This document shows, piece by piece, positions 1 through 56,355 of a stretch of DNA of 64,000 nucleotides. The notes beneath the pieces were generated by a model, which was not told the origin of the DNA, did not search any database, and saw only the letters and a program-made list of their open reading frames with translations. The stretch is from Candidatus Harrisonbacteria bacterium CG10_big_fil_rev_8_21_14_0_10_40_38 (GTDB lineage Bacteria; Patescibacteriota; Minisyncoccia; UBA6257; 1-14-0-10-40-38). The DNA lies in the NCBI GenBank assembly GCA_002773535.1, contig PFAZ01000007.1, forward strand, positions 4,675-68,674, written 5' to 3'. Both the position numbers and the translations under genes were made by a program. Numbering within the stretch: the first letter of the stretch is position 1; each line of letters starts with the position of its first letter.

Positions 1-792
1 GACTCACAAAAAATCAAAACAAAGGAGCTTATTATAAGCTACGCAAATGCAGTAAATTCTTTAAACGGTAAATTCACCACCGGTGAAGACGTTGGTATCA
101 GCGAAGATGATGTTCAGCTCATGTTTAAGCACTCATCTTTTTTTATTGGCAAAAAAGGCGTTGCAGGTGACCCATCTCCTTATGCAGCGCTAAGCACATT
201 TTATTGCATACAAACTGCCCTAAGTGAAAGATTTGGAAGTGATTCACTAAAAGACAAAACAGTATCCGTAAAAGGCGTCGGTAAAGTTGGCGCAGAACTT
301 GTGCGTCTTCTTATAGAATCCGGCGCAAATATTATTGTGGCAGACATAAACAATCAGACGATAGATGAGCTAAAACAAAAATTCCCACAAATCAAAGTTG
401 CAGACGCAAACACAATCCACAAAGAAAAGGCAGATGTGTTCGCCCCATGCGCTATGGGTAAAGAGCTTACAAAAACTACTATCGAAGAAATCATTGCCCC
501 AATCATCTGCGGTAGTGCCAACAACCAACTCGAATCAGATGAAATAGGGGACGCGCTTTATGCAAAAAAAATTATGTATATTCCGGACTACGTCGCAAAT
601 GCAGGGGGTCTTATTGATGTCATAGATGAAAGAGAAGAAGGCGGTTATTCAAAAGAAAGAGTATTGTCTCGCATAGCAAACCTTAAAAATACCCTAAGTG
701 AGATATTCCAAAGAGCCAGAAAAGAAAATATTCCATTTCACCGCGTCGCGAATAAATTGGCTGAAGAGCGGTTTATGAATGCCAGAAAATAA
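1..792 (+). CDS. Leucine/valine dehydrogenase (Glu/Leu/Phe/Val dehydrogenase family), C-terminal NAD-binding part; the frame is open from base 1, so the 5' end lies outside the window
   Basis: GKVGAELVRLLIESGANIIVADIN Rossmann motif; ...DVFAPCAMG...ICGSANNQL...IPDYVANAGGLI... matches the Leu dehydrogenase C-terminal domain almost motif by motif. No stop in frame 1 upstream of 121. Confidence 0.8.
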   Translation, partial: DSQKIKTKELIISYANAVNSLNGKFTTGEDVGISEDDVQLMFKHSSFFIGKKGVAGDPSPYAALSTFYCIQTALSERFGSDSLKDKTVSVKGVGKVGAELVRLLIESGANIIVADINNQTIDELKQKFPQIKVADANTIHKEKADVFAPCAMGKELTKTTIEEIIAPIICGSANNQLESDEIGDALYAKKIMYIPDYVANAGGLIDVIDEREEGGYSKERVLSRIANLKNTLSEIFQRARKENIPFHRVANKLAEERFMNARK

Positions 793-794
793 AT

Positions 795-2312
795 ATGAAT
801 TTCAATCAAGACGACAAAAAAGCCGGTGAAATAACAAAGCTTATACATAGCAAGAAAAGCGCCTACTGGGAAAAAAGGCGTGAAACAAACGCGCTCGCTC
901 TTTTCAAAAAAGCTTCAAAAGAAGTTCCCGCCTATAAAGATTTTCTAAAAAAGAACAAGATAAAAACAGAAAAAATCAAATCATTTAAAGATTTTAATCT
1001 CATACCAACATTCAGCAAAAAAACCTATCTAAAGGATTATCCTCTAGAAAAAGTTGCATGGGACGGAAATTTAAATAAACCCCTCATCTATACGTCGACA
1101 TCGGGATCAACCGGAGAGCCTTTTTATTTTCCAAGAGAAAACAAACTAGATTGGGAATATTCCGTAATGATCGATTGGTTTCTAAAGAACAGTTCATATA
1201 AATCAAACGGACCGGTTTTAGTAATCATAGGTTTTGGCATGGGTGTGTGGATCGGTGGGCTTATCACATACAAAGCATTTGAAATTTCCGCCCAAAGAAG
1301 CAAGATTCCGATTTCGATAATCACCCCGGGAATAAACAAGGGGGAAATATTTAAAGCTTTCCGAAACCTATCACCTCACTACAAGGAGACTATTCTTGTA
1401 ATGTATCCTCCTCTCATGAAAGACGTGCTGGATGAAGCGGCAACACAAGGAATAAATCTCAAAAAATTAAACATCAGGCTTCTGACCGCAGCCGAGACAT
1501 ATACGGAAAAATTCAGAGATTATATAGCAAGAAAAACAGGAATCAAAAATGTCTATCGCGACACGTTAAATATTTATGGCACGGCAGATATTGGCGCCAT
1601 GGCTTGGGAAACGCCGACTTCTATTCTTGTACGCCGCCTAGCCATGCATTCAAACAAACTTTTCAAAGATATTTTCGGCCCAATTGAAAAAACGCCCACT
1701 CTCGCCCAATATAATCCGGAGTTCATAACTTTCGAATCTGTAAACGGAGAAATTGTATTAACTGGAAATAATACAATTCCTCTTATAAGATACGCTGTTG
1801 GCGATCACGGAGGGGTACTTTCATTTAATGAAATAAAAACAAAAATAGAATCACACGGCTTCGACTTTAAAGAAGAAGCGAAAAAAGCCGGCATAGAAGA
1901 TGCGATAACGGAGCTTCCATTTGTATATGTTTATGAAAGAAACGATTTTTCAACCACTCTCTATGGCGCGCAGATTTACCCTGAAATTATCAGAGAAACT
2001 CTTCTTGCAAAACCGATAACAAAATTTCTAACAGGAAAATTTACCCTACTTACAAAATACGACAAAAAACAAAACCAATATCTTGAAATAAATCTCGAGA
2101 CAAAAAAGAATAAAAAAATATCATCCGTTTTTAAGAAAAATGTTTTGATGAGAATTGTAACAGACTTAAGGGCAAAAAATTCAGAATTCAGAGAGCTTAC
2201 AAATCATTTTCATAAGAGAATATACCCAAAACTTGTTTTCTGGTGCTACGAACATCCGCTATACTTCAAACCAGGCATCAAACAAAAATGGGTCAAAAAA
2301 GGAGGAGATTAA
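795..2312 (+). CDS. Adenylate-forming enzyme, phenylacetate-CoA ligase (PaaK) / coenzyme F390 synthetase-like
   Basis: IYTSTSGSTGEPFYFP matches the PaaK/F390-synthetase AMP-binding P-loop (TSGTTGxP). Size ~500 aa. Confidence 0.55.
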   Translation: MNFNQDDKKAGEITKLIHSKKSAYWEKRRETNALALFKKASKEVPAYKDFLKKNKIKTEKIKSFKDFNLIPTFSKKTYLKDYPLEKVAWDGNLNKPLIYTSTSGSTGEPFYFPRENKLDWEYSVMIDWFLKNSSYKSNGPVLVIIGFGMGVWIGGLITYKAFEISAQRSKIPISIITPGINKGEIFKAFRNLSPHYKETILVMYPPLMKDVLDEAATQGINLKKLNIRLLTAAETYTEKFRDYIARKTGIKNVYRDTLNIYGTADIGAMAWETPTSILVRRLAMHSNKLFKDIFGPIEKTPTLAQYNPEFITFESVNGEIVLTGNNTIPLIRYAVGDHGGVLSFNEIKTKIESHGFDFKEEAKKAGIEDAITELPFVYVYERNDFSTTLYGAQIYPEIIRETLLAKPITKFLTGKFTLLTKYDKKQNQYLEINLETKKNKKISSVFKKNVLMRIVTDLRAKNSEFRELTNHFHKRIYPKLVFWCYEHPLYFKPGIKQKWVKKGGD

Positions 2313-2329
2313 GAATATCTACCAAAAAT

Positions 2330-3457
2330 ATGGAAAATATAAAAACCGTTTGGCAACCAGTTAAAGTCAGTAAAAAAGATATAGATAAACTAAAAGAAGA
2401 ACATCCAGAACTTCTAGTTATAGACGAAACAAAAAGAAATCTTGAAGAATTATTTCTATTACGTAACCCAAAATATAAATTCGACAAAAATTATCACGAA
2501 GAATTCGAATCTTTTTATAAAGAATACAACTCAGAAAGTTTTGGAGAATGGTTCCATTTTTCATGGATAAATAGTGTTGTCCGCTTCTTTCCTGAGGACT
2601 TACACCAGGAATTACGTACAGGCAGAAATAAATACCTAATTTCAAAGGATGAGCAAGACAAGTTTTATAACTCCACTGTTGCCTTTTGTGGTATGAGCGT
2701 GGGAAGTCATATCGCGATAGTTACAGCTATGACCGGAGGCGCAAAACATATGAAACTCGCAGATCCAGATGCTCTTTCTGGTGACAATTTAAATCGTGTG
2801 AGGTTGGGCTTTCAAAACGTTGGTATTAACAAAACAATTCTTGTTGCAAGACAAGTATATGAAATAAATCCATATGCAGAAATTGAAATATATACAGACG
2901 GCATAACAGAAGAAAATGCCAATCAGATATTAGAAGACGTAGATATTATCGTAGAAGAAATGGACAGTATGTACTGGAAATTAAAAACCAGAGAACTTGC
3001 GCGTGCTAGAGGAATTTCGGTCATTATGGGTACAGACAACGGAGACGGTGCAATCGTCGACATAGAAAGATATGACATAAACCCAGACCTCCCTATATTA
3101 AATGGACTAGCCAAGGGTTTAAGTGCTGAAAGGTTAAAAAATATGCCAGCAAAAGATTTGCCAAAGGTTGCGGGTAAAATTGCAGGCGCCAACCTAGTTG
3201 TTCCCAAAATGCTTTATTCCGTATCTGAGGTGGGGAAGTCTCTATATTCGTGGCCTCAACTCGGTAGTGCTGCAAACATGTGCGGTTCATTAGGCGCAAT
3301 GCTTATAAGGAGGATCGTAAATAAAGACAAGAATATTAAATCTAAAAGGTATTCAGTAAATCCCGACGCAATTTTTGAATCGGACTACAAACGCAAATGG
3401 TTTTCTCGCAAAATCGAATTTATCAAATTTATCCGCAAAATGATGAAACAGGAATAA
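2330..3457 (+). CDS. ThiF/MoeB-family E1-like adenylyltransferase with ~100-aa N-terminal extension
   Basis: RTGRNKYLI...VAFCGMSVGSHIAIV nucleotide-binding loop typical of ThiF/MoeB/E1, followed by the DPDAL...N..R region. Start moved from the track's 2243 to the ATG at 2330 to avoid a 70-nt overlap with the upstream gene. Confidence 0.5.
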   Translation: MENIKTVWQPVKVSKKDIDKLKEEHPELLVIDETKRNLEELFLLRNPKYKFDKNYHEEFESFYKEYNSESFGEWFHFSWINSVVRFFPEDLHQELRTGRNKYLISKDEQDKFYNSTVAFCGMSVGSHIAIVTAMTGGAKHMKLADPDALSGDNLNRVRLGFQNVGINKTILVARQVYEINPYAEIEIYTDGITEENANQILEDVDIIVEEMDSMYWKLKTRELARARGISVIMGTDNGDGAIVDIERYDINPDLPILNGLAKGLSAERLKNMPAKDLPKVAGKIAGANLVVPKMLYSVSEVGKSLYSWPQLGSAANMCGSLGAMLIRRIVNKDKNIKSKRYSVNPDAIFESDYKRKWFSRKIEFIKFIRKMMKQE

Positions 3458-3503
3458 ATTTTATTGAAGCGGTATAACTTCAAAAATGCTATAATAACTC
3501 AAT

Positions 3504-4571
3504 ATGGAGAATATTCGAGTGAATGTAGAAGAAATTCTAAGAAATTCAATAAATGCACCATCTGGCAGCAACTCTCAGCCATGGAAATTTTTAGTAAAAG
3601 GAAGCGAAATTTACATACTCGCTTTTCCAGAAAATGATCATCCAATATTAAATTATAGATCACGGGGAACGTGGATAGCTCATGGCGCACTTATCGAAAA
3701 CATCATTATCGCTGCATCAAAATATGCTTATAAAGCAACCCCAATGATTTTTCCATATGATCCCAAAACGCATATAATTGCAAAAATTAAACTCGAAAAA
3801 TCAGAAGATATAGCAGTAAATCCGTTATTTGAAATACTTTCGAAGAGAACAACAAATAGAAAAATTTATAAAAAAGAAAAATTAAATGAAGACCAAAAAA
3901 ATGCCATCATTGGTACAATAGGGGGAAATAATAATATTGTATTCAAGCTAATAGAAGATCGGGAAAAAATTAACAAGATTGGCAATGCAGTTAGTGCGAA
4001 CGAAATCGTAACTCTCGAAAATAAGAAACTTCATAAATTATTTTTTAATGAAGTAATTTGGACCGAAAAAGAAAACAAAAAAAATCCAAAAGGTATTTTT
4101 TTGAAAACAATGGAATTTAAACCACCGCAAAAACTCGTTTTTAAATTACTTAGAAATTGGAATGTTATGAAAATTGCAAATAAAATAAAATTTGCCCGTA
4201 TAATTGCAAAAGGAAACGGTAAAGGATATGCATCTTGTGCAGCAATGGGAGTGATTGCGGTTGATAATAATGATAATGATTTTATTGAAGCAGGAAGAAT
4301 TTTAGAGAGAATGTGGTTAGAGGCAACAAAAATGAATTTAAGTTTTCATTTAATAACAGGTATATTTTTCTATTGGCAAGCAATAAAATTAGGCAATTCA
4401 AACATTTTAAATAAAGAACATCAAGAAATTATTGAAAATGCATATAAAGAAACAGAAGAGTCAAGTGGTATAAACGATAAAATTATAACCATAGTCTGCA
4501 GAATAGGAAAAGATGGAGAGCCGACAGGGATATCTACTAAACTCCCTCCAGACATAGAATATATCAGTTAA
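3504..4571 (+). CDS. Nitroreductase-superfamily protein, double-length (SagB/McbC-like dehydrogenase candidate)
   Basis: N-terminal SGSNSQPWKF motif of the nitroreductase fold. A second nitroreductase-like half (GKGYASCAAMGVIAV...ERMWLEATKMNLSFH) follows. 355 aa. Confidence 0.5.
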   Translation: MENIRVNVEEILRNSINAPSGSNSQPWKFLVKGSEIYILAFPENDHPILNYRSRGTWIAHGALIENIIIAASKYAYKATPMIFPYDPKTHIIAKIKLEKSEDIAVNPLFEILSKRTTNRKIYKKEKLNEDQKNAIIGTIGGNNNIVFKLIEDREKINKIGNAVSANEIVTLENKKLHKLFFNEVIWTEKENKKNPKGIFLKTMEFKPPQKLVFKLLRNWNVMKIANKIKFARIIAKGNGKGYASCAAMGVIAVDNNDNDFIEAGRILERMWLEATKMNLSFHLITGIFFYWQAIKLGNSNILNKEHQEIIENAYKETEESSGINDKIITIVCRIGKDGEPTGISTKLPPDIEYIS

Positions 4572-4583
4572 AATAAAAAAGTA

Positions 4584-6257
4584 ATGCAAGTAGTAAGAAA
4601 TTTGGATTTATTTTCGGTTGGGGTGGCAATAGCAGCAATTGCAATACTCGGTTTTGTTGCCTTCCTTAACAACAAAAAAAGCATAACAAATAAAACATTC
4701 TTTGCTTTTTCCATGGTTGCCGTCCTATGGAATGTAGCAAATTATCTTATTTTTCAGTTTGACTCTCCGGAAATAGCTTTATGGATTTTAAGATCAGTGA
4801 TATTTTTTGCGACATGGTATTGCTTTTTTATATTTCAATTATTTTTTGTTGCACCAGAAGAACAATACCAATTTCCCAAAATATACAAATTTGGTCTCAT
4901 ACCTATTGTCATAGCCGTTTCACTTTTAACACTCACCCCGTATGTCTTCAAAGAAGTCACAGCATTTGATGCGGGTAAGATTTCTAGTGTAGAAAATGGA
5001 CCTGGAATATTCATTTTTGGTGCTTTAGTAATAAGTCTTTTAGTGGGTGGAACTTCAATACTAATACACAAGATGAGAAATTCAGAAGGAATCGTAAAAA
5101 CTCATCTAAAATATATATATAGAGGAGCAATCGCAACATTTCTACTATATATTGTATTCAACTTCATATTGCCGGCTTTCTTTAATAATCCGTCAGCTAT
5201 ACCACTTGGAGCACTTTTCACATTCCCAATTGTAATGATGACAACATATGCAATTTTTAAACATCATTTGTTTAATGTAAAAATAATTGCAACTGAGTCA
5301 TTGGCGTTTTTTCTAGCTATTGTAACATTGTATGAAACAGTTTTTGCGGAAAACTTAACAATAATTATTCTCCGATCAGGAGTTTTCTTGCTTGTTTTAG
5401 CATTCAGTATTCTTTTAATTAGGAGTGTTCGACGAGAAGTCGAGCAACGTGAAAAACTTGAAGTGTTAACCCAACAACTCGAGACCACAAACGTAAAACT
5501 CCAAAAACTCGACCAGCTCAAGTCAGCTTTCTTAAGTTTTGCCGCTCATCAAGCAAAGGGTCCAATAAACAACGTAAAAGGTTACGCAAGCCTCATCGAA
5601 GACGGTTCCTTTGGGGAGGTGCCTCAGGAAGTTAAAGAAAAAGCTCTACGAATAAAAACGATTGCAGATGATACATTAATTCTTCTCGGAAATCTCCTCG
5701 ACATGAGAAAAATAGAAGAGGGTACCTTCTTTAAGGAATTTAAATATGAAGAAGTAAACATTGTAGATTTCGTACAAAAACTAATAGAAGAGTACAAAGT
5801 TGGCATGACACTTCGTGGAAAGCCCGATCTCGAACTTTCGTTTGAATCATCCGCTCCAGAAATTAAAATAAAAATAGATCAGCTTAAAATCAGGCAGGTT
5901 GTGCAAAATCTTCTCGATAATGCAATCAAATACACGGATAAAGGGTTTGTGAAAGTGTCCGTAGCTGATGAACAATCGGCAAATCCAATGCAAAAAAACA
6001 CAAATCAATCACCAGTGGCTAATGGCTATGTGCTAATTACTATTCAAGACTCTGGCCGTGGTATATCAAAAGACCTTCAGGAAAAACTTTTCCACGAATT
6101 CGTTCGCGATGAAAAAACATCAAAAGAAATTCAAGGCACTGGCCTTGGTTTGTATCTTGCCAAGCAAATCGTTGACGCACACAAAGGCCAAATAACCGCC
6201 GCCTCAGAAGGCGAAGGCAAAGGAAGTACGTTTACGGTAAAGTTGGGGAAGATATAA
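4584..6257 (+). CDS. Sensor histidine kinase (polytopic membrane N-terminus, HisKA, HATPase_c)
   Basis: About 7 hydrophobic helices, then a coiled-coil, H-box LSFAAHQAKGPIN, N-box NLLDNAIKYT, and G-boxes DSGRGI / GTGLGLYLAK. Confidence 0.8.
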   Translation: MQVVRNLDLFSVGVAIAAIAILGFVAFLNNKKSITNKTFFAFSMVAVLWNVANYLIFQFDSPEIALWILRSVIFFATWYCFFIFQLFFVAPEEQYQFPKIYKFGLIPIVIAVSLLTLTPYVFKEVTAFDAGKISSVENGPGIFIFGALVISLLVGGTSILIHKMRNSEGIVKTHLKYIYRGAIATFLLYIVFNFILPAFFNNPSAIPLGALFTFPIVMMTTYAIFKHHLFNVKIIATESLAFFLAIVTLYETVFAENLTIIILRSGVFLLVLAFSILLIRSVRREVEQREKLEVLTQQLETTNVKLQKLDQLKSAFLSFAAHQAKGPINNVKGYASLIEDGSFGEVPQEVKEKALRIKTIADDTLILLGNLLDMRKIEEGTFFKEFKYEEVNIVDFVQKLIEEYKVGMTLRGKPDLELSFESSAPEIKIKIDQLKIRQVVQNLLDNAIKYTDKGFVKVSVADEQSANPMQKNTNQSPVANGYVLITIQDSGRGISKDLQEKLFHEFVRDEKTSKEIQGTGLGLYLAKQIVDAHKGQITAASEGEGKGSTFTVKLGKI

Positions 6258-6269
6258 AATTATTATTTA

Positions 6270-6297
6270 TTGACAGTGACGTACAAACGATTATAGT
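6270..6297 (+). promoter_or_regulatory. Sigma70-like promoter (TTGACA-16-TATAGT) upstream of ORF 6363
   Basis: ttgaca gtgacgtacaaacgat tatagt. It is followed by a strong SD, AGGAGG, 8 nt before the ATG at 6363. Confidence 0.4.
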
Positions 6298-6362
6298 AAT
6301 GAAGATTGAGTAGTATGGTTCTACTCTATCAAGAACATTGAAAACCCCTAGGAGGTAATACG

Positions 6363-6785
6363 ATGAGAAATACTAACATTACCCTCGCTCCGATTCCGCA
6401 ACTAGTTGTAGAACGATTGGCTAGCAATAGTGGCCTTCAGCCAGAAGACGCAGAAAGGCAAATGATTGAACTCGCCAAATTTCTTTCTGTCTGTGCAGAA
6501 TATCCCGGCGAGAATGCTCCATCTCGAGTAATTGACGATCTCTGGCATGTTTTTGTCTTATTCACCCGAGAATATCAAAGGTACTGCCAAGAAAACTTTG
6601 GTAAATTCATTCACCATACACCTACGGGATATGCTATGAACAATACTTATCAAAAAACACGTGCTCGTGCTCAAGAGATGTTTGGAGAACTTGATCAGGA
6701 CTTATGGCCGGAGAATGCAGGTGGGGCTGCAATCTGTAATGACTGTTGTGACGATAATCCCGGTGGCGAACATCCCCAAGGATGA
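6363..6785 (+). CDS. Hypothetical protein (DDLWHVFVLFTREYQRYC...HHTP motif, Cys-rich acidic C-terminus)
   Basis: ORF with a consensus SD and a higher local GC than its neighbours. Conserved-looking D-x2-W-H-x-F-x-L-x-T-x2-Y-x3-C core. C-terminus CNDCCDDNPGGEHPQG. Confidence 0.4.
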   Translation: MRNTNITLAPIPQLVVERLASNSGLQPEDAERQMIELAKFLSVCAEYPGENAPSRVIDDLWHVFVLFTREYQRYCQENFGKFIHHTPTGYAMNNTYQKTRARAQEMFGELDQDLWPENAGGAAICNDCCDDNPGGEHPQG

Positions 6786-6843
6786 CAAATAATGCAAAAG
6801 CATCAGTAGTTAATCAATTCCCAAGAGGCATAGAAAAATAATT

Positions 6844-7419
6844 CTATGTCTCTTTTTTTACTAAAAAATATTCAGCTACAACGGATAAAGGATTTTCCTT
6901 TGTAGGTTTGTAATATAAATCTATTCCTTTAATTATAAAATATTTAACAAGAATTTCTTCCAACTCATTCTGCTGAACAACTAAAAATGGCTTTTCAGCA
7001 TGCTTTATAATGACCTGTAATATAAACACACCATTCAGTTTAGAGGCTATAGTTGCTAAGTATTTTTCCTTATCCTCTATAAAAACCAAAGTTTTAGAAT
7101 CTATTATTAAATCATAGGCCCTATTTTTAAAGGAATATGTCGCCAACTCTTCAAGATCCCAAACATTAAAAAAAAGACCTGGTAAAGATGGTTGTTTAGA
7201 CGCTATTTTTATAGCTTCCTCGGAAAAATCTATTCCTTCTACCATAAATCCGTGTTGTGCTAACCACCGAGCAACCTCTCCTGTGCCGCAACCTAAATCC
7301 AGCGCAGAACCATTAAAAACACCTGACTTTTCTAGCCAGTTAGACAGGTTAATTTCCCGTCGACGCCACGGATTTTTCCCATCGCGATATGACTTATTCC
7401 ATTTTTCTTTAGATGCCAT
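6844..7419 (-). CDS. Class I SAM-dependent methyltransferase (TehB/TPMT-like size)
   Basis: Motif I LDLGCGTGEVARWL and motif post-I GIDFSEEAI. 191 aa. Confidence 0.65.
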   Translation of the reverse strand: MASKEKWNKSYRDGKNPWRRREINLSNWLEKSGVFNGSALDLGCGTGEVARWLAQHGFMVEGIDFSEEAIKIASKQPSLPGLFFNVWDLEELATYSFKNRAYDLIIDSKTLVFIEDKEKYLATIASKLNGVFILQVIIKHAEKPFLVVQQNELEEILVKYFIIKGIDLYYKPTKENPLSVVAEYFLVKKET

Positions 7420-7452
7420 CGAAAAATCTTAGCACTTAAATAAACTTTCTAT

Positions 7453-7548
7453 CAAGCAAATCGTTGACGCCCACAAAGGCCAAATAACTGCCGCCTCAGA
7501 AGGCGAAGGTAAAGGATCTACGTTCACGGTAACACTGTCAAAGATGTA
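7453..7548 (+). pseudogene. Remnant of a histidine kinase 3' end (HATPase_c G2 box through stop), near-duplicate of 6162-6257
   Basis: About 88% nt identity to the end of the 4584-6257 kinase. It translates as KQIVDAHKGQITAASEGEGKGSTFTVTLSKM* with no upstream kinase sequence. Confidence 0.55.
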
Positions 7549-7597
7549 GTCCAAAAAAACAATTGACACTAACCAACCCAAGTCTATACTAATCAAT

Positions 7598-7906
7598 ATG
7601 GAAATTAATGAGCAAAAAATAAGAAATATCCTCATAGAACAGCGAGAAGAATATCAACGTTTTTTGTCTGTTGTTTCTGAAAATTTTGAATCACAAGTTA
7701 AAATTATCGCTGAAACGCTAAGCAGTACCCAACAACAGTTAGTAAGCATCAGAGATATGGTTGCAAAAAATACTGAAGATATTGAAATAATCAAAATGGA
7801 ATCACAGATTATAAGAAACGATCTCAAAGAAAAAATCAGTCGCGATGAATTTAAAATTCTAGAAACTCGAATTTCTAAGTTAGAAAAATCAATTCATCAA
7901 AAATAA
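7598..7906 (+). CDS. Hypothetical coiled-coil protein
   Basis: ORF with heptad-like composition and no recognisable domain. Confidence 0.35.
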   Translation: MEINEQKIRNILIEQREEYQRFLSVVSENFESQVKIIAETLSSTQQQLVSIRDMVAKNTEDIEIIKMESQIIRNDLKEKISRDEFKILETRISKLEKSIHQK

Positions 7907-7930: not shown

Positions 7931-8092
7931 ATGGCAGAATTAACACGTAAAGACATAAAAGAAGTTTTTATCGAATCACTTGAACCTTTCACAAAAGCGG
8001 TTCAGGAAGATTTTAATAAAGTGAATAATCGCCTAGATGGCGTAGAAAACAGGCTAAGCGGCGTAGAAAATCGACTGAGTGTGTTAAATTGA
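7931..8092 (+). CDS. Small hypothetical coiled-coil protein (NRLDGVENRLSGVENRLS repeats)
   Basis: ~53-aa ORF not in the track (<60 aa) with tandem 7-aa ENRLSGV-like repeats. Low confidence. Confidence 0.2.
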   Translation: MAELTRKDIKEVFIESLEPFTKAVQEDFNKVNNRLDGVENRLSGVENRLSVLN

Positions 8093-8327
8093 CGTAAAAT
8101 GGATCAAAGACAACACAAATGAACTATTTGCAAAACTAGATGAAATTTATATCACTTTATAAAAAACAAGAACAAGAGCTTACAATACTTGCAAAGCAAA
8201 TCAAAGAATTAGAAAAAAGAGTTGCGGAACTAGAATCCCGAAAATAGAAAAACATCGCATAAAAAGCGCTGTTTTTTTATAAACGACTCCAGTTGAATTT
8301 TGTCAAAAAAGGTAGGAAAATAAAAAT

Positions 8328-8906
8328 ATGAAAAAAACTATAACTTACGCAATAGTCATCATCCTTTTAATAGCCGGCGGTTGGATCATTAAAAATGCAA
8401 CCAGTGAAAACAGTGATGTTGCCAAAGATTTCCCATTTGAATCAATTAATTCAATAAATGATTTAGAAAATAGTAAGTTGTATACAAGTAAAATATTTAA
8501 TTTTAGGATTAGCTATCCAGAAAATTGGATCGTATCTTCAAACGAAAATGAAGTGGGTTATAATGTTTCATTTTCTAGTATTGAATTAACAGAGCCCAGA
8601 ATCCCAAATAATGAAGCAAAAATCGAAATTAATATTATTGAAAATAAAAATAAAAATAACATTAATGAATGGGTTGAGAATTTTCACAATGAAGACCCAT
8701 TTTTCCAAGGACAAATAAGTGCATCGAAAGAAATTTTGATTGCTGATAAAAGTGCAAAAATAGAAATAATTAACGGAAATCCAATAAATTATAGTGCTGC
8801 ATATATACCACTCGGCAATGATTATATAATGATCATTACCGGACCAGAAATACAAAGTAAATATGGAGAAACATTTCTAAAAATGTTAAAAAGCTTAACT
8901 CTATAA
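8328..8906 (+). CDS. Hypothetical membrane-anchored or secreted protein
   Basis: N-terminal hydrophobic helix (ITYAIVIILLIAGGWII). Its stop lies 1 nt before the start of the giant M23 gene, so the two are likely co-transcribed. Confidence 0.45.
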   Translation: MKKTITYAIVIILLIAGGWIIKNATSENSDVAKDFPFESINSINDLENSKLYTSKIFNFRISYPENWIVSSNENEVGYNVSFSSIELTEPRIPNNEAKIEINIIENKNKNNINEWVENFHNEDPFFQGQISASKEILIADKSAKIEIINGNPINYSAAYIPLGNDYIMIITGPEIQSKYGETFLKMLKSLTL

Positions 8907-8907
8907 A

Positions 8908-11900
8908 GTGGAAAAAACAAAATTACCAATATTTTTTATAATTGTTTTTACTCTATTAAATTTCACAAATTTAACAAAAGCCTCTGGATATCTTTCTAAG
9001 CCATTATCTATTTCAACCGAATACAGCTGGTTTGATCATACATCTCCAAAATATGGCGCAAATCCAGATCAGTACATAAACATCATGACAAGATATGATG
9101 GGCAAGTTTTTACCGATGGAAGTTGTATACCATATGAATCTTGTTACGATGGGCACGAAGGAATTGATTTTGTAGCTCAAGAAGGCACACCAGTTTTTGC
9201 CTCTGAGTCGGGCAATATTTCAATTGGGTATTCAAATTTAGGGGGTAGATGGACAAAAATTTGGCACGCAAGCCAAAATCAAGCAACGTATTATGGCCAC
9301 CTAAAAGAATACGTAATTACCAGTGGTTATGTTTCCAAAGGAGATCTTATTGCATTCTCAGGAAAGACCGGAGTAGTAAGTGGTCCACACCTACACTTTG
9401 GTGTGTATACCGCCCAAAGTAATGGAATCCCTATCGACCCATATGGTTGGTCTGGGCCGAGCCAAGACCCATGGCAATATGATCTAGGATATCTTTGGGA
9501 TGACAATACGCCACCATCTTGGGGTGAAGAACATGTTTCAGGAAATATTACCCAAGACACTACTTGGATTTCAGGAAATACATATGTTGTAGATGGATCT
9601 ATAACTGTAAATGCTGGAGTTACTCTCACGATAAATCCAAACGTTGTTGTAAAATTTGCCCCAAGTAATGGGGTAATTTCTGTTTATGGAACTCTAAATG
9701 CAAACGGAAATGGATTTCAAAAAATCTACTTCACCTCAATAAAAGACGACTCCGTAGGAGGGGATACGAATCATGACGGATCTGCCACAGCCCCAGCTCC
9801 AGGAGATTACGAGGGAATCTATTTCACCGACGGCTCATCTGGTGGTTTTAGTAATTCTGTATTTCGCTACGGTGGTAAATTAAACTACTGGGCCCAAATC
9901 CCATATGGAGCAATGCGTATCTATGGAGGTGATGTCTCGGTATCAAACACAGAATTTAAAAGTAATATCTACGGAATTTATTATTACAACAACAATACCT
10001 CCGGTACACTTTCCATACAAAACTCCCAATTTGATGAAAATGGAGATTATGGTTTCTATGCAAATTCACCAAATGGCAGAACTCTAATTGTTGAAGATTC
10101 TATATTTGGCAATCACAATATCTCAGCAGGTAAAATCTCAGAAAAAATAAATTTTATCAACTCTGGTAACCACCCCATGTCCGGGGTTTCGACAGTATTT
10201 CATATAATGTACGGCAATGCTCCTGTAAACCAAACTTGGAACCCCGGCATACCTTTCTTAATCGAAAGCTATACAATCGATCAAGGAAGAAAAGTAACGA
10301 TAAATCCCGGCACAATAGTTAAATTTAGCCAAGATTCTTCGATTAATGTTTATGGTTCGTTACTCGCTTTAGGAGAAGCAAATAATAGGGTCTACCTTAC
10401 TTCAGCGAAAGACGACTCCGTGGGAGGTGACACAAACCACGACGGATCTATTACTTCTCCGGCAGCAGGAGATTACTACGGCATGTATTTTTACGAAGGG
10501 TCAGTATCCGCTCTGCAAAATACTTCAATTAAATATGGTGGTAAATTCAACTACTGGTCACCAATTCCATATGGAGTAATACGTATTTATGGAGGACATT
10601 TGGTAATTCAACAAAGTGAAATAAACAGCAACAACCACGGAATATATCAAGTTGGAGACACAACTCTATATACCGAGTCATCAATGATTCAAAATAATAT
10701 TGGTCATGGGCTATATATTTTAAACTCAACAGGTATAGCAACCACAACTATCTTAAACAATGCATTTAACAATAATGAAAATAGCGATGCATACATCTCT
10801 GGAAAAACAATATTCGTAAATAGCGGCAATACCGGCGATGACTCAAGTAAGTTTATAATTTCCGGCCAAATAAGCTATGATCAAGTTTGGAATCCGGGTA
10901 TTCCATTTGTACTTAGTTACGTGTCTATTGATCAAAATAAAAAATTAACAATAAACCCTGGCACAATAGTAAAATTCAACCAAAGTTCCGCAATCAATGT
11001 TTATGGTTCCTTATTTGCTCTAGGTGAAGCAAATAATAAGGTCTACTTCACTTCGATAAAAGACGATACAGTCGGTGGAGACACTAACGGTGATGGATCC
11101 GCAACTTCACCGGCTCCAAGCGATTATCAAGGCATTTATTTTTTCGATGGATCCCATGGAGATATTAATTACGCAAACATTAGCTACGGAGGGGAATATA
11201 ACTATTGGTCAATTCATTATGGGGCATTGCGTATTGCAAATAGCGAAGTGTCAGTAAATAACAGTCTTTTCAAGAAGAATAGCTATGGTATATACATGTC
11301 ATATTCTGGATCAGTTTCAGTAAACAGGTCAGAGTTTGAAAGCAATGATTGTGGCGCGTGCATCTATGCGACACCAGCCACAGTTTCTTTTACAAATAAT
11401 GAATTTAATAACCAAAAAACATACGATATATTACTATCCGGCAATATTAATTTTATAAATAGCGGCAATACAGGTATAAACACCAAAGGAATTTTGTTAT
11501 CAAACTTCACGCCAACGGAAAATCAAATTTTAAATCCAGGAGTGCCATATGTCGTTCAATATGTATTAATTTCATCCGGGAAACAGATAGATATAAAACC
11601 AAACACAATTCTAAAATTTGATGGCAACGGCGCAATAATCACATATGGAAATCTTAATATCAAAGGGCTACAAAACGGACCAGTATATTTAACTTCATTA
11701 AAAGACGACTCTCTTGGCGGTGATACGAATGGGGATAAGCTCGGAACATCTCCACGTGAAGGCGATTACCAAGGAATATTTTTCTACTCTGGAGCAACGG
11801 GTATGATTGAAAATGCCGTGATAAAATATGGCGGTAAGTATATTTATGGCGTCAGTCCACCATATGGAGTAATTAGAGTATATGATGGAACTCTAACTAT

Positions 11901-12162
11901 TCGTAAGAGCACCATAACAAAAAACAAATATGGAATCATGCAACAAGGCAATAATTCTCATACAACAATATCGTTAAGTTCGATAACCGATAACTTAGAT
12001 TATGGGTTCTATAGCTATCGTCCCAATACGGTAAACGCCGATCATAACTGGTGGGGTAGTGCAACTGGCCCATATAATCCAAATTCAAATCCAAACGGAC
12101 AAGGAGACAGGGTTTCCGATGACATCCAATACACTCCTTGGTTAACCAGTAATCCAAACTAA
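8908..12162 (+). CDS. Large secreted M23-family metallopeptidase fused to four tandem beta-helix-like repeat modules
   Basis: Signal/anchor MEKTKLPIFFIIVFTLLNF. M23 motifs HEGIDF and HLHFGVY (HxxxD / HxH). Four ~200-aa repeats, each with TINPGTIVKF...VYFTSIKDDSVGGDTN(H/G)DGSATSPAPGDYQGIYF...KYGG..NYW. C-terminal HNWWGSATGPYNP motif. Confidence 0.7.
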   Translation: MEKTKLPIFFIIVFTLLNFTNLTKASGYLSKPLSISTEYSWFDHTSPKYGANPDQYINIMTRYDGQVFTDGSCIPYESCYDGHEGIDFVAQEGTPVFASESGNISIGYSNLGGRWTKIWHASQNQATYYGHLKEYVITSGYVSKGDLIAFSGKTGVVSGPHLHFGVYTAQSNGIPIDPYGWSGPSQDPWQYDLGYLWDDNTPPSWGEEHVSGNITQDTTWISGNTYVVDGSITVNAGVTLTINPNVVVKFAPSNGVISVYGTLNANGNGFQKIYFTSIKDDSVGGDTNHDGSATAPAPGDYEGIYFTDGSSGGFSNSVFRYGGKLNYWAQIPYGAMRIYGGDVSVSNTEFKSNIYGIYYYNNNTSGTLSIQNSQFDENGDYGFYANSPNGRTLIVEDSIFGNHNISAGKISEKINFINSGNHPMSGVSTVFHIMYGNAPVNQTWNPGIPFLIESYTIDQGRKVTINPGTIVKFSQDSSINVYGSLLALGEANNRVYLTSAKDDSVGGDTNHDGSITSPAAGDYYGMYFYEGSVSALQNTSIKYGGKFNYWSPIPYGVIRIYGGHLVIQQSEINSNNHGIYQVGDTTLYTESSMIQNNIGHGLYILNSTGIATTTILNNAFNNNENSDAYISGKTIFVNSGNTGDDSSKFIISGQISYDQVWNPGIPFVLSYVSIDQNKKLTINPGTIVKFNQSSAINVYGSLFALGEANNKVYFTSIKDDTVGGDTNGDGSATSPAPSDYQGIYFFDGSHGDINYANISYGGEYNYWSIHYGALRIANSEVSVNNSLFKKNSYGIYMSYSGSVSVNRSEFESNDCGACIYATPATVSFTNNEFNNQKTYDILLSGNINFINSGNTGINTKGILLSNFTPTENQILNPGVPYVVQYVLISSGKQIDIKPNTILKFDGNGAIITYGNLNIKGLQNGPVYLTSLKDDSLGGDTNGDKLGTSPREGDYQGIFFYSGATGMIENAVIKYGGKYIYGVSPPYGVIRVYDGTLTIRKSTITKNKYGIMQQGNNSHTTISLSSITDNLDYGFYSYRPNTVNADHNWWGSATGPYNPNSNPNGQGDRVSDDIQYTPWLTSNPN
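9540..12000 (+). repeat. Four intragenic tandem repeats (~580 nt / ~195 aa each) inside the M23 gene
   Basis: The amino-acid block KDDSVGGDTNxDGS(A/I)T(A/S)P(A/R)xGDY(E/Q)G(I/M)(Y/F)F recurs at aa ~285, ~495, ~715 and ~935. Confidence 0.5.
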
Positions 12163-12186
12163 AAACCCCGCCAAGCGAGGTTTTCT
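12163..12186. terminator. Bidirectional hairpin terminator between the convergent M23 gene and rpmE
   Basis: aaaacc-c-cgc-caa-gcg-a-ggtttt, with an A-run upstream and a T-run downstream. Confidence 0.4.
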
Positions 12187-12199
12187 TTCCGGCAATTCA

Positions 12200-12469
12200 T
12201 TAAGCAACTTCCTTCTTTGTCTCTTGTTTTTTCATACGAACTTTCTTTGCCTTATTCGGCATTGCAGCGGCTTTTTCCTTTCTTGCCTTAAATTTCTCAA
12301 CTCTTCCTGCTGTATCGATAAGTTTCTCTTTGCCGGTATAAAAAGGATGGCAGTTATAGCAAATTTCAACAGAAATCTCCTTTTTTGTTGAGCCAACCGT
12401 AAACTCATTACCGCATGCACAGCGAACTTTTGCTTCAGGGTAATATGTTGGATGTGCGTCGGTTTTCAT
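12200..12469 (-). CDS. rpmE: 50S ribosomal protein L31 (Zn-ribbon type) with Lys-rich C-terminal tail
   Basis: CACGNEF...[13 protein letters not shown], the hallmark L31 motif. Confidence 0.85.
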
Positions 12470-12603
12470 AGTAAAGCAATTATATTCGATAAATTAATCT
12501 TTGACAAGAGGCATATTATGGGAATAACATACCTCTTATAGACCCGCTCTTTCCCACATCCGTCAAAAGGAGTTGAGAAAATGTAAATAATAAGGAGAGA
12601 AGA

Positions 12604-13203
12604 GTGATGGAAAAAGCATATTTTGCGCTAATAGCTGTATTCAGTGTGTGTAGTTGCACTGTTACTGATCACGAGCGTAAGTTTCCTAAAAGTTGTGAAG
12701 GAGATCTGGATGCGATAAAAGACCGATTTTCTTTAGTGAAAAATGGCGAAACAACAGAAGAAGATCTCAGGGCCCTCGGGTTTGTATTCGAGGATGATAA
12801 CATCAGGACTATCCCAGGCCCCGGAGCTATGAAAACACTCTTCAGTAATGAGGCATTTCAAGGTCTTCTAGGAGGCCTAGGTAAGGCTATAAACTCCGAT
12901 CTTTGGGGTGAATACAGCTCGCTTAGGCTAATTATTATCCCTCACAAGGATATAACAACAACAGAAGACATTATATATATAAATCACAAACTCAGTACCA
13001 GAATAGGCCACAATTTCAGGTTTATTCTAGTATTTAAGGATGATGTTGTGATTTATCATGATTCAGATGGTACTTTTTTCGATGAAAGTAGAGACAAAAG
13101 CGCATTTCTTCTAGGTCTCTGGACTCTTCTTGGAATTACCAGAGATAACTTCGAATGGCCTCCAATTCCTAAACTTTTCGAAGCCGCGCCCCTCCCTCAG
13201 TAA
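12604..13203 (+). CDS. Hypothetical lipoprotein or secreted protein
   Basis: Signal peptide with lipobox-like VCSC. An SD-like AAGGAGAG lies upstream. A hairpin at 13207-13236 follows. Confidence 0.4.
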   Translation: MMEKAYFALIAVFSVCSCTVTDHERKFPKSCEGDLDAIKDRFSLVKNGETTEEDLRALGFVFEDDNIRTIPGPGAMKTLFSNEAFQGLLGGLGKAINSDLWGEYSSLRLIIIPHKDITTTEDIIYINHKLSTRIGHNFRFILVFKDDVVIYHDSDGTFFDESRDKSAFLLGLWTLLGITRDNFEWPPIPKLFEAAPLPQ

Positions 13204-13242
13204 CCCAAAAGCCCCTGTTTCTAATAGGGGCACTTTAATAGC

Positions 13243-13270
13243 TTGACAGTTGAAAACTGCCCTCTATAAT
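13243..13270 (+). promoter_or_regulatory. Consensus sigma70 promoter (TTGACA-16-TATAAT) for the 16S rRNA gene
   Basis: cttgaca gttgaaaactgccctc tataat, about 170 nt upstream of the mature 16S 5' end. Confidence 0.5.
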
Positions 13271-13439
13271 GGGTAATGCTCTGTAAAGATACAAAAAAGC
13301 CAGATTTGACCGACCATTAACAAAAAATGCAGCAAAGTTGAAAGTTATATAGTTGTCCCAATTTATTTTAAGGAGGTATTCAAGAATAATGCACCTGCTT
13401 TCTTTTGAAAGTTTTTGCATTATTAGTGATTACTTTCAT

Positions 13440-15015
<1,576 letters not shown>

Positions 15016-15188
15016 AATTAAGCTAAGTCGAACATACTTTTTTATGTTTAGTGCAGTACTGCAATCTTTTTATAGGTTCAGGGAAGCAAAAAGTGTTGAT
15101 CGAGGAGCTTTAAGTCTCGATTCGTGTATTAGAGAAATCAAATACGCGTAAATTGGGACAACTATATAGACTTCAACAAAAAGCACAA

Positions 15189-15215
15189 GAAGGCGCCGCC
15201 CCGCCTTCATTTTTG
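15189..15215 (+). terminator. Hairpin plus T-run downstream of the 16S gene
   Basis: GAAGGCG-ccgcc-CCGCCTTC followed by atttttg. Confidence 0.4.
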
Positions 15216-15352
15216 TGCCCTCTATTGTTGTCCCCCCGAGAAATAAATAGTCCACTTTTATCATACATATGGTATAATATCCACAAGAGGTGCTGATTTT
15301 TACAAGCACCGGTTTATGGCGTTGTGCTATATGTTCAAATTTTAAAAAAAAC

Positions 15353-15742
15353 ATGGCAAAAATTTTGCTCGTAGAAGATGATCAATTTCTTTCAGCTTTG
15401 TTAAAAACAAGGCTTGAAAAAGAAAAATTTGAAGTCATAGCGGCACACGATGGCCCAGAAGCGCTTCAAGCGCTCCGCAGTGTAAAACCAGATTTAATAC
15501 TTTTAGATATTATATTGCCGGGAAAGTCAGGTTTCGATATTTTAGAAGAAATGAGGAGCGATCCCCAGCTTCAGGATAAAAAAGATGTTCCAGTTATTAT
15601 CATTTCCAACCTCGGGCAGGAAAGTGACATGGAACGCGGTAAAGAACTTGGTGTTGTAGATTATTTTGTCAAAGCAAGAGTCTCGATAGATGAGCTTGTC
15701 AAAAAAGTTAATAGCTTCATAACAACTCCCGCAAAAAACTAA
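15353..15742 (+). CDS. Single-domain response regulator (CheY-like receiver only)
   Basis: MAKILLVEDD...DLILLDIILPGKSGFDIL...K, with phospho-acceptor Asp and Lys signatures and no output domain. Start chosen at the internal ATG 15353 rather than the track's 15290. Confidence 0.75.
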   Translation: MAKILLVEDDQFLSALLKTRLEKEKFEVIAAHDGPEALQALRSVKPDLILLDIILPGKSGFDILEEMRSDPQLQDKKDVPVIIISNLGQESDMERGKELGVVDYFVKARVSIDELVKKVNSFITTPAKN

Positions 15743-15827
15743 ACAAATAAAAAATTGACGCAGAAAAAGCGCCTATTTTTTAATCAAAAACCCAAACATC
15801 ATTTATTAAAACTTTCCCATCTACCTC

Positions 15828-16068
15828 TAAAAACATAGCTTATTTGAAAGCGTCTGGTTGGCACGCATATCTCATCACCCCACTCAAAACAATATTTAAT
15901 AAATTCTTGATCGGATTATGAGACTGTTTTGGCACACATCCTCCAACTCTAATTAAAAACATAGCTTATTTGAAAGCGTCTGGTTGGCATGGGGTCAAAA
16001 ATTTCTCCCCCCGCTATGCGGGGGGGTTATAAAAATAGAGGAGCGCTTTCAAATAAGTCTATGTTTTC
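15828..16068. repeat. Three copies of a ~36-bp element (two direct, one inverted) plus a G/C hairpin
   Basis: taaaaacatagcttatttgaaagcgtctggttggca occurs at 15828-15864 and 15954-15989. An imperfect reverse-complement copy (gcgctttcaaataagtctatgtttt) lies at 16041-16068. The hairpin ccccccgc-tat-gcggggggg at 16007-16026 sits between the last two. Confidence 0.5.
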
Positions 16069-16299
16069 ATATTTTACTTATCCACAATCCGCTCCTTTCA
16101 AGAAAAACCCTGTGGCTCTATAATCAAATTAAATTCATTACAGAAATGGTCGAGAACATCGAAAAGAAAAGCGCGCGAGTAAGGAAACGCGACGTGAATA
16201 TGCGCAACAACGTGTGAGGAACGTTTTTGCGCAAATTCGCAAGTATATCCCTTCTCGCGCGCTTAGTAGTTAAAAAACAAAAAAACAAAAAAAACAAAA

Positions 16300-16902
16300 A
16301 TGAGAAAAGGATTTACACTTATCGAACTTCTTATCGTTATAGGTATTTTGGCAATTTTAGCCACGACAGTAGTACTAGTACTAAACCCGGCACAAATCTT
16401 GCAGGAATCACGCGATACACAACGAGTTTCTGACCTAGGTTCAGTTCAGTCTGCTATTGGTCTTTATCTTGCCACTTCGCCCAGTATTGATATGGATGTT
16501 GCAAACGGAACATGTGCCACAAACTGGTGGTCATCAACAAGCGCAACCGGAGCAGCAAATCAACCATTTGCCAACCCTGCAGTACAAGTTGATTCAGCAA
16601 CGCTGGCAGATTCAAGAGCCGTTGATGGTAACGGATGGGTTGCAGTTAACTTCGGTTTGGTATCAGGAGGATCCCCGCTAGGATCTCTCCCAATAGATCC
16701 AAGCGAAGACGCAACCAATGCTTTAGATGCGGGCGGCCATTTCTATGCGTATTCATGCTCAGCTACCAATACATATGAAATTAATGGAAACATGGAAAGC
16801 GCTAAGTTTGGAAATGGTGGAGGATCAGACGTAGAAAATACAGACGGTGGTAATGAGCCAGATATTTACGAAATTGGCACAGAGCCAGGTCTCGACCTAT
16901 AA
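16300..16902 (+). CDS. Type IV pilin (class III signal peptide, major pilin candidate)
   Basis: MRKGFTLIELLIVIGILAILA: prepilin cleavage/methylation motif G^FTLIE and a hydrophobic alpha1 helix. Confidence 0.8.
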   Translation: MRKGFTLIELLIVIGILAILATTVVLVLNPAQILQESRDTQRVSDLGSVQSAIGLYLATSPSIDMDVANGTCATNWWSSTSATGAANQPFANPAVQVDSATLADSRAVDGNGWVAVNFGLVSGGSPLGSLPIDPSEDATNALDAGGHFYAYSCSATNTYEINGNMESAKFGNGGGSDVENTDGGNEPDIYEIGTEPGLDL

Positions 16903-16914
16903 AAGTTAATCTGT

Positions 16915-16948
16915 AAAAAACAACCCCGCTCTGCGGGGCTGTTTTTTT
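16915..16948 (+). terminator. Rho-independent terminator after the pilin gene
   Basis: aacaaCCCCGCtctGCGGGGctgttttttt. Confidence 0.55.
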
Positions 16949-16985
16949 ATTAACACACTCAAGTTATGCTAAAATAACTTACATA

Positions 16986-17558
16986 ATGCCATACGAAAAC
17001 CTAGCGTTTTACATATCGACGGGTATCTTGTTGTTCGCGCTTTTTATCCAGTCAAAAGAAAAAACAAAAAAATTTATAAAACCTCTCTTTTGGACTACGT
17101 CAGTCCTTGTTTTAGGATACTTGAGCTATATAACTTATCTTCAATACAAAGCTTTTCAAAAGTCATATCTTGATCTCACGATAGGTACACTAGATGGTCT
17201 TAAGTGGTTTGCAGGCTACGTGCAGCTTCACTTCTGGAACACTTATCTTGTTTCATTTGTTGCAGCCCTGTTAATATTCGCTCTCGCTAAATACATAAAT
17301 AAAAAAAGGGGAGAGGTTTTTTTAGAAGGGGAGGAAATATATCTTGGCGGATTAGGTGTTTTATTAGTTGGTTATCCCTCATTTTTCTTTTATATACCGC
17401 TAGTACTTTTACTTGCCATCATCACTTCACTTATAACAAAAAAACAAAAAGAACGGCTCCCGCTTTATTATTTCTGGATGCCTACAGCAATTTTAGTGCT
17501 TTTGGTCATATTTTTTTGGGCAGAACATCAGTCGTGGTGGTTTACATTTAGATTTTAA
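16986..17558 (+). CDS. Polytopic membrane protein, hypothetical (a divergent prepilin peptidase is possible, inference only)
   Basis: 5-6 predicted TM helices and a position between the pilin and pilB genes. LEGEEIYLGGLGVLLVG loosely recalls the GGGDVKL motif of A24 peptidases, but the catalytic Asp is not conserved. Confidence 0.3.
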   Translation: MPYENLAFYISTGILLFALFIQSKEKTKKFIKPLFWTTSVLVLGYLSYITYLQYKAFQKSYLDLTIGTLDGLKWFAGYVQLHFWNTYLVSFVAALLIFALAKYINKKRGEVFLEGEEIYLGGLGVLLVGYPSFFFYIPLVLLLAIITSLITKKQKERLPLYYFWMPTAILVLLVIFFWAEHQSWWFTFRF

Positions 17559-17658
17559 AGAAAATTCAAAAAATATATCAATGAAATCAATAAAACAAAA
17601 TCAAATTAGTTCTAATAAATATTTTTTATCTTTGATATTTAATTTTTGATTTTTTATT

Positions 17659-19374: not shown

Positions 19375-19377
19375 AAA

Positions 19378-20589: not shown

Positions 20590-20594
20590 AGAAA

Positions 20595-21774: not shown

Positions 21775-21775
21775 A

Positions 21776-56350: not shown

Positions 56351-56355
56351 AAAGA

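Follow-up and report, generated by a model that had tools for sequence, protein, structure and literature searches.

A displaced histidine kinase gene end as the probable scar of an integrase-free insertion in a patescibacterial genome

Bacteria of the candidate phyla radiation (CPR), or Patescibacteria, have tiny genomes with few recognisable mobile elements and cannot be grown alone, and their gain of accessory genes is known almost only from sequence scars. Here, we examine a locus of Candidatus Harrisonbacteria bacterium CG10_big_fil_rev_8_21_14_0_10_40_38, a low-GC (38.5%) uncultured groundwater CPR bacterium, in which the 3' end of a histidine kinase gene recurs on the far side of an insert that carries two other genes. 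The window, by which we mean the whole 64-kb stretch analyzed (contig PFAZ01000007.1, positions 4,675 to 68,674), raises the question of how one kinase gene came to have two ends and how the insert came to lie between them. The initial annotation of this DNA had proposed either an insertion or gene-conversion event that duplicated the kinase terminus or the loss of a second paralogous kinase. Our analysis supports the insertion and replaces the duplication by the displacement of one functional allele end by another. We consider it probable that the locus is a 3'-end displacement scar, produced by recombination with a laterally acquired kinase allele and its cargo and without an integrase.

Two ends of one kinase gene

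The kinase gene (4584-6257, plus strand) encodes a 557-amino-acid (aa) protein with Pfam matches to HisKA_7TM, HisKA, and HATPase_c. It is intact: its HATPase_c domain is complete, with the Pfam match reaching residue 554. Repeat search and pairwise alignment identified a direct repeat of 96 nucleotides (nt) at 6161-6256 and 7453-7548, with 86% identity (83/96) and a spacing of 1292 nt, in agreement with the initial annotation except that the latter gave an identity of about 88%. This pair is the sole long dispersed repeat of the window that is not internal to a gene. As established by codon alignment, the left copy (6161-6257, plus strand) is the present 3' end of the kinase gene, codons 527-557 plus TAA, and the right copy (7453-7549, plus strand) is an orphan kinase 3' end of 31 codons plus TAG, with the conceptual translation KQIVDAHKGQITAASEGEGKGSTFTVTLSKM. 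The left copy ends in ...TFTVKLGKI and the right copy in ...TFTVTLSKM*. The longest identical run measures 20 nt, and the first mismatches occur 18 nt into the repeat. Leftward of 7453, the similarity to the kinase ends sharply, and the right copy is untranslatable, since an in-frame TAG lies 21 nt upstream (7430-7432) with no ATG, GTG, or TTG in between. The right copy is accordingly an orphan without upstream kinase sequence, as first described. We found no further degenerate remnants of the kinase end in the window. Between the two copies lie 1.2 kb that contain a PF27765 gene (6363-6785) and a convergent S-adenosylmethionine (SAM) methyltransferase gene (6844-7419).

Three other assemblies of the same population, with independent contigs from different samples, match the window at 100% identity, and two of these contigs, each of 18 kb, cover both copies, which shows that the arrangement is not an assembly chimera. 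Four short independent assemblies of the same population (L003, L004, L007, and L008) start or end within 6272-6459, a stretch of 190 nt where the cargo has its left edge; these breaks could stem from a drop in coverage or from a variant of the left junction within the population.

The way in which the two copies differ bears directly on their origin. Over the first 26 repeat codons, there are 6 nt differences in 5 codons, all of them synonymous and one of them an AGT/TCT serine switch. When 5 to 6 substitutions are placed at random, the peptide remains unchanged with a probability of 2e-4 to 7e-4. The last five repeat codons contain three amino-acid changes, in a tail that is also variable among orthologs. 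The raw synonymous difference between the two ends is ~0.2-0.3. Such synonymous-only divergence implies that both ends were once working kinase ends that remained under selection while they diverged. In addition, both copies carry QITAASEGEGKGSTFTV (QITAAS...STFTV) where orthologs have IWAES.GEGKGS.F (about 120 homologs), and this shared unusual motif places the origin of both alleles in one narrow clade. Judged from their codons, the two termini are diverged functional alleles from separate lineages and not an on-the-spot duplicate left to drift. The proposal that the event duplicated the kinase terminus was thus not borne out.

Orthologous loci and a second array of kinase ends

In order to place the insert in an evolutionary context, we compared about 16 orthologous loci. 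The kinase is the terminal gene of a block that also encodes a PaaK-like ligase, a ThiF protein, and an Rv1355c-type nitroreductase, and this order is kept in L020-L023 and L105-L108; orthologs with matching upstream synteny are 45-57% identical to the window kinase. Downstream of the kinase, the next gene differs from genome to genome (class II tRNA-synthetase-like, fn3, GreA, TrmB, L25, a 397-aa open reading frame [ORF], HIT, SIR2). The kinase end is therefore a synteny break, constant upstream and variable downstream.

In the window, the full conserved block (121-6257) comprises genes for a glutamate-dehydrogenase-like protein, a 505-aa PaaK-like adenylate-forming enzyme, a ThiF E1-like protein, the Rv1355c-type nitroreductase, and the HisKA_7TM kinase. 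The block is conserved across Parcubacteria at 45-57% kinase identity, and it is interrupted in L020 by ATP-grasp MvdD-like and TPR genes and in L107 by an M16 peptidase gene. It looks like an uncharacterised modification or signalling pathway.

One of these loci, L107, has the same flanks as the window on both sides, with the kinase on the left and genes for PsbP-like and M23 proteins on the right, and its 1176-aa M23/beta-helix protein is 35% identical over its full length to the product of window 8908-12162. Neither cargo gene is present there, and a 397-aa ORF occupies their place. Since L107 combines the same upstream block and the same downstream genes without the cargo, the cargo is an insertion relative to the ancestral order. 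In L109, the distal order of L31 (minus strand), rRNA, and response-regulator genes is that of the window, with only a SIR2-like gene in between. The L109 SIR2-like gene (2803-3933, with PADLOC SIR2 matches) lies directly behind the orthologous kinase, and the spot fits an accessory or defence islet.

The two cargo genes were found together in a different context in L016-L019, where the ORF is 63% and the methyltransferase 57% identical to its window counterpart, where the genes are again convergent, and where the ORF has its own promoter, leader, and GGAGGT. No repeats flank the pair in L016-L019. As far as gene order can tell, the PF27765 gene and the methyltransferase gene travel as a unit. 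In L014, a PF27765 homolog is paired with a GNAT acetyltransferase gene and not with a methyltransferase gene.

The initial annotation had described the insert as apparently horizontally acquired and its first ORF as GC-richer. The insertion stands, given L107 and the mobility of the pair, but the argument from GC fails at third codon positions (GC3). The total GC of the 6363-6785 ORF is indeed elevated (0.444 versus 0.385 ± 0.039 for 64 long ORFs), the excess lying at codon positions 1 and 2, whereas the GC3 values of the ORF (0.340) and of the methyltransferase gene (0.271) compare with 0.323 ± 0.050 for window genes. As GC3 of both cargo genes is ordinary among window genes, we rejected composition as an indication of foreign origin.

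A second case emerged when the window proteins were compared with the fetched loci by tblastn. In L023, whose kinase gene (8001-9647) encodes a protein 53% identical to the window kinase, three nested orphan kinase ends (~160, 80, and 30 nt) follow the intact gene within 9648-16662. Each orphan reaches exactly to a stop codon and bounds a block of unrelated genes on the right. Counting the intact end as the first, copy 2 (11783-11943) spans 52 codons with 29 nt differences, which leave 21 codons changed synonymously and 4 non-synonymously; in 20000 simulations of neutral change, a non-synonymous count this low never arose. Copy 3 (about 12538-12617) keeps the same frame and has an in-frame 9-codon deletion. 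Copy 4 (16633-16662) reads RFYVRLSKR*, the amino acids of the resident end, despite 6 nt differences that include TCA/AGT and CGG/AGA. Taken over the window and L023, the four orphans start at four different codons.

The first L023 block contains a GreA-like gene, a RelE/ParE-type pair (recognized by eye, with no family match), and a DUF2283 gene; the second is a gene pair that ends in a weak ParE_toxin match; and the third contains genes for a membrane protein and a CBM96 protein, a two-gene pair, and HIT. The two-gene pair of the third block, which has no family match, may be a toxin-antitoxin module. HIT lies 35 nt after the kinase in L108, to which L023 is most closely related (69% kinase identity), but 6.5 kb after it in L023. 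No integrase was found among the called genes of L023. The stop codon of HIT in L023 arises at the junction with the 30-nt orphan.

Displacement and its rivals

What is observed comprises the anatomy of the locus, the traces of selection on both ends, the cargo-free L107 with its matching flanks, the mobility of the pair, and the recurrence in L023. On this basis, we propose the following course of events, in which the transfer's direction, its molecular route, and the way the DNA was taken up are what we infer. Donor DNA from a closely related lineage would have entered the cell, carrying the end of a kinase allele and the cargo downstream of it, namely, the PF27765 gene with its promoter, leader, and ribosome-binding site and the methyltransferase gene. 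Recombination through homologous kinase sequence would then have let the incoming end (...TFTVKLGKI*) complete the kinase gene, while the resident end (...TFTVTLSKM*) would have been kept but shunted 1292 bp downstream, untranslated, in front of its old promoter and ORF102. Repeated events of this kind would build arrays, and the process would have run at least three times in the second lineage, L023. The recombination may have been a single RecA crossover with a small circle bearing a kinase 3' fragment and the cargo, as in the model proposed for rhs genes. Alternatively, a linear fragment may have been integrated by homology-facilitated illegitimate recombination (HFIR), with its anchor in the kinase and an illegitimate joint at codon 527 of the resident gene. 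A type IV pilus cluster nearby is compatible with DNA uptake, in line with general knowledge of CPR genomes. Once formed, the direct repeats should permit RecA-mediated loss of the cargo as a 1292-bp circle, which would leave a hybrid, intact kinase end.

Several points weigh against displacement. The repeat is short, with 26 informative codons, so that the selection test on the window alone is of limited power. Divergence is far stronger in the last 5 codons and beyond the stop than in the first 78 nt, an excess that is compatible with neutral divergence at a synonymous divergence (dS) of ~0.3-0.4. No available relative exceeds 57% kinase identity, and neither the empty site, nor an intact kinase ending in ...TLSKM*, nor the donor arrangement was seen. 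A search for exact protein matches led only to contigs of this population, 100% identical and without exception carrying the insert; a scan of the genome collection for the kinase returned distant relatives only; the nearest kinase homolog among 5.8 billion proteins is ~55-57% identical; and a degenerate DNA pattern for HKGQITAASEGEGKG had no match in metagenome contigs. Orphan ends occur in only 2 of ~17 orthologous loci, and the notion of a hot spot rests on two lineages. The 30-nt orphan of L023 is too short for efficient homologous crossover, so that this event at the very least requires that the junction was illegitimate or that the orphan was eroded later. Finally, a near-consensus promoter lies +13 or +14 nt behind both copies, which makes the left boundary of the cargo ambiguous, at ~6258 or ~6310. 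The repeat may extend past the stop codon to about 6310/7603, in which case the left edge of the cargo would follow a copied ORF102 promoter. Such an extension is disfavored by the identity outside the hexamers, which a hand count put at 19/42 (not significant), and by the cargo-ORF homologs, which bear promoters of their own at similar distances.

The loss of a second paralogous kinase would mean that two tandem 7TM kinases were ancestral and that the second was cut to its last 31 codons, its body being replaced by the cargo. Synonymous-only divergence suits a once-functional paralog as well as a foreign allele, and a distant locus, L056 (31% identity), does have two full-length tandem 7TM kinases (10001-13154), with a third 6 kb upstream. 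Yet no second kinase adjoins the first in any of the about 16 orthologous loci (36-57% identity), none of the relatives has the full-length second kinase that the initial annotation suggested looking for at the position of 7453, and no trace of a second kinase body was found between 6258 and 7452 of the window. Paralog decay would also call for duplication, deletion, and insertion, compared with one recombination event for displacement. In L023, it would require three extra paralogs, each trimmed to its exact 3' end with the stop codon retained, and is therefore unparsimonious. This origin is weakened by the comparison with L023, and we regard it as unlikely. The remaining candidates involve a dedicated element or a local copying event. 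A Pfam search that covered the cargo, the bracketing window genes examined between 121 and 22669, and the gene calls of L023 detected no domain of an integrase or transposase, and the ends of the insert show only weak AT-rich inverted matches. Together with the differing starts of the orphans, the lack of a recombinase and of terminal inverted repeats argues against a site-specific element or a transposon.

The remnant of a site-specific integrative element, with attB in the kinase 3' end, a replacement end in attP, and an integrase lost or acting in trans, would produce arrays by tandem accretion, as at tRNA genes or in tycheposons. Repeats derived from the 3' end of a conserved gene that the element restores are the classical signature of such elements, and L023, with its island-like toxin-antitoxin cargo, resembles tandem accretion. 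Nonetheless, besides the missing recombinase in both the 1.2-kb insert and the L023 blocks, the four start positions leave no single crossover site, the 20-nt longest identical run and the mismatches from 18 nt into the repeat leave no identical att core, and viral contigs yielded no relative of either the cargo or the kinase end; we hold such an element to be quite improbable. In-situ duplication, whereby the insertion copied ~96 bp of its target by long target-site duplication, template switching, or slippage and the copy then drifted, would give the observed geometry of an insert between direct repeats of the target. However, a dead copy should gain mostly non-synonymous changes, and the codons changed in this way number 0/5 in the window and 4/25 in L023; with neither a transposase nor terminal inverted repeats in evidence, this origin is very hard to sustain. 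We also rejected a transposon or insertion sequence, for which a transposase and convincing terminal inverted repeats are missing and the repeat, at 96 nt and diverged, is no short identical target-site duplication, and an integron cassette, since there is no integrase, both cargo genes have promoter-like sites of their own, and the repeats are coding remnants.

Displacement of a gene end has precedents. For rhs genes, C-terminal displacement was proposed to proceed by homologous recombination of circular intermediates that contain core fragments "of varying lengths" and intervening genes (Jackson et al. 2009, BMC Genomics 10:584; PMC2935791). The kinase locus resembles rhs loci, and the orphan cdiA-CT/cdiI and rhs-CT arrays, in that detached 3' fragments, each still bearing part of the conserved region, lie downstream of an intact gene, that the fragments would have been shunted there by laterally acquired replacements without an integrase, that exchange appears limited to closely related core sequences, and that the displaced end and the one now attached derive from separate, though related, functional genes (P of about 2-7e-4 in the window and 0/20000 simulations in L023). 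It differs in that the kinase ends encode the same HATPase_c terminus, with no polymorphic toxin tip and no immunity gene; in that the variable part is unrelated cargo behind the stop codon; and in that the host gene is a signalling kinase of a CPR bacterium and not a toxin gene of Proteobacteria. In Vibrio cholerae, arrays of type VI secretion system (T6SS) effector genes were proposed to grow by sequential displacement via HFIR (Kirchberger et al. 2017, Sci Rep 7:45133; PMC5361080). There, too, a conserved upstream anchor is followed by new genes that push older ones downstream, and the mechanism, which is tied to natural transformation, is integrase-free, as is proposed here; the Vibrio orphans, however, are immunity genes under selection, whereas the kinase orphan is a non-functional gene end that has no evident selective reason to persist. 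With genomic islands that target gene 3' ends, the locus shares repeats from the target 3' end, an intact target, the possibility of tandem arrays, and accessory cargo, but it lacks an integrase, its junction varies from event to event, its repeats are diverged without an identical core, and the insert is only 1.2 kb long.

In the minimal mobile elements of Neisseria, a naturally transformable organism, cassettes that lie between a pair of conserved genes are exchanged through transformation and homologous recombination. Like the present insert, these are small integrase-free cassettes at a fixed chromosomal site; unlike it, they are replaced by double crossover and leave no duplicated gene end.

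On the displacement reading, the locus offers a concrete, datable example in which a conserved gene would serve as the homology anchor, the cargo would arrive with a foreign allele end, and the old end would remain as a marker. Orphan gene ends with synonymous-only divergence could serve more widely as a key with which to search metagenome-assembled genomes for hot spots of integrase-free insertion. More speculatively, and with the balance tilted clearly against it, the kinase 3' end of Parcubacteria could be a portable, integrase-free attachment site for small cassettes, each with its own kinase-end fragment. The cassettes, comprising toxin-antitoxin pairs, methyltransferases, and SIR2-type defence genes, would loop out through RecA recombination between the repeats as circles, be acquired through natural transformation, and integrate again by means of one crossover. 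If so, integron-like arrays without an integrase would exist in organisms that are otherwise poor in mobile elements.

Cargo signals and neighboring features

The first cargo gene (6363-6785, plus strand) encodes a 140-aa PF27765 protein (UCP032817-like, "glycine-rich domain-containing"). This assignment comes from a precomputed match, as the local Pfam copy gave none for the ORF, and is accompanied by a family alignment and an AlphaFold2 (AF2) model. The family core reads D..WH.F.LFT..Y..FC...GRFIHH.P, and D58, W61, H62, F64, T68, Y71, H85, and P87 are invariant in an alignment of 54 sequences. PF27765 has a broad range (Actinobacteria, Flavobacteriales, Planctomycetota, and others), and the NCBI name is sometimes "glycine-rich domain-containing protein". 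The model shows an all-helical core of five helices with a predicted local distance difference test (pLDDT) score of 86.8 and a Cys/Gly-rich C-terminal tail. No fold match in PDB was found at E <= 0.001, nor any sequence match in NCBIfam, PADLOC, or PDB, and a literature search found no paper mentioning UCP032817. The C-terminal LWPENAGGAAICNDCC(D/E)DNPGGEHPQG is nearly invariant in three genomes (the window, L014, and L016), for an overall identity of ~63%.

The ORF is preceded by a sigma70-like promoter, TTGACA-16-TATAGT (6270-6297, plus strand; 11/12 in a consensus scan), and by a 65-nt leader (6298-6362, plus strand) with a Shine-Dalgarno (SD) sequence, AGGAGG, at 6350-6355, 7 nt ahead of the ATG at 6363. 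Both signals are present as first reported, and the accompanying remark that most genes have no SD sequence roughly holds: an SD-like core precedes ~17% of the 64 long ORFs, and many ORFs look leaderless. The homologs in L014 and L016 have leaders of 59-71 nt with the SD sequence GGAGGT. We rejected a riboswitch or structured leader, since Rfam gave no match to the leader, the best hit having E = 0.72 and lying on the wrong strand, and the folding of three homologous leaders gave z-scores of -1.3, -0.9, and 0.0, that is, no significant structure.

The second cargo gene (6844-7419, minus strand) encodes a 191-aa class I SAM methyltransferase, convergent and TPMT/TehB-like as the initial annotation had recognized. 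Its Pfam matches above cut-off are Methyltransf_31/25/23/11/12, TPMT (36.8 bits; cut-off, 26), and TehB (28.7 bits; cut-off, 20.4); no NCBIfam equivalog cut-off was reached. A weak promoter-like site, TTGATA-18-TAAGAT (7426-7455, minus strand; 9/12), straddles the junction of cargo and orphan, with its -10 element 6 nt before the ATG. Between the convergent cargo genes, a hairpin with a 13-bp stem, found by hairpin scan at 6823-6854, is probably a shared bidirectional terminator.

To the right of the orphan, the older downstream region begins with ORF102 (7598-7906, plus strand), a coiled-coil protein gene with a partial homolog in L106. Its promoter, TTGACA-16-TATACT (7563-7590, plus strand; 11/12 in the consensus scan), places the ATG 7 nt after the -10 element, so that ORF102, like the methyltransferase gene, has a -10 element 6-7 nt ahead of its ATG and a leaderless look. 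Sigma70-like promoters of at least 11/12 number five in the 64 kb, and two of them sit 13 and 14 nt past the two kinase stops, both with 16-nt spacers; the 6270 and 7563 promoters are followed by AATGAAGATTGAG and AATCAATATGGAA, respectively.

Over the orphan and the ORF102 promoter runs an antisense ORF of 68 aa (7429-7635, minus strand), within which the Joint Genome Institute (JGI) called a 50-aa gene. The small ORF is probably spurious; no counterpart was found upstream of the methyltransferase gene in L016. The antisense frame shares its third positions with the kinase frame, and we considered it as a source of the constraint on the repeat. It was rejected in that role, since it is not open in the left copy, lacks the L016 counterpart, and has 2 amino-acid changes where the kinase frame has none.

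Further downstream, ORF53, ORF35, and the stretch between them (7931-8247) resemble one coiled-coil gene with two frameshifts, decaying within the old downstream region. The gene at 8908-12162 encodes a 1084-aa M23 peptidase/beta-helix protein and contains four internal repeats of ~650 nt that are 65-75% identical. The 16S rRNA gene (13438-15024; region 13243-15024) has the window's sole 12/12 promoter ahead of it and a response-regulator gene, not 23S/5S, behind it; ARAGORN found no tRNA genes in the 64 kb. The type IV pilus cluster (16300-22669), 9 kb from the insert, encodes two N-methyl pilins, a PilB-like T2SSE ATPase, and a PilC-like T2SSF protein. A 42-nt terminator-like hairpin sequence with a GC stem occurs twice, at 16907-16948 and, inverted, at 56317-56358, 39 kb apart and with 93% complementarity.

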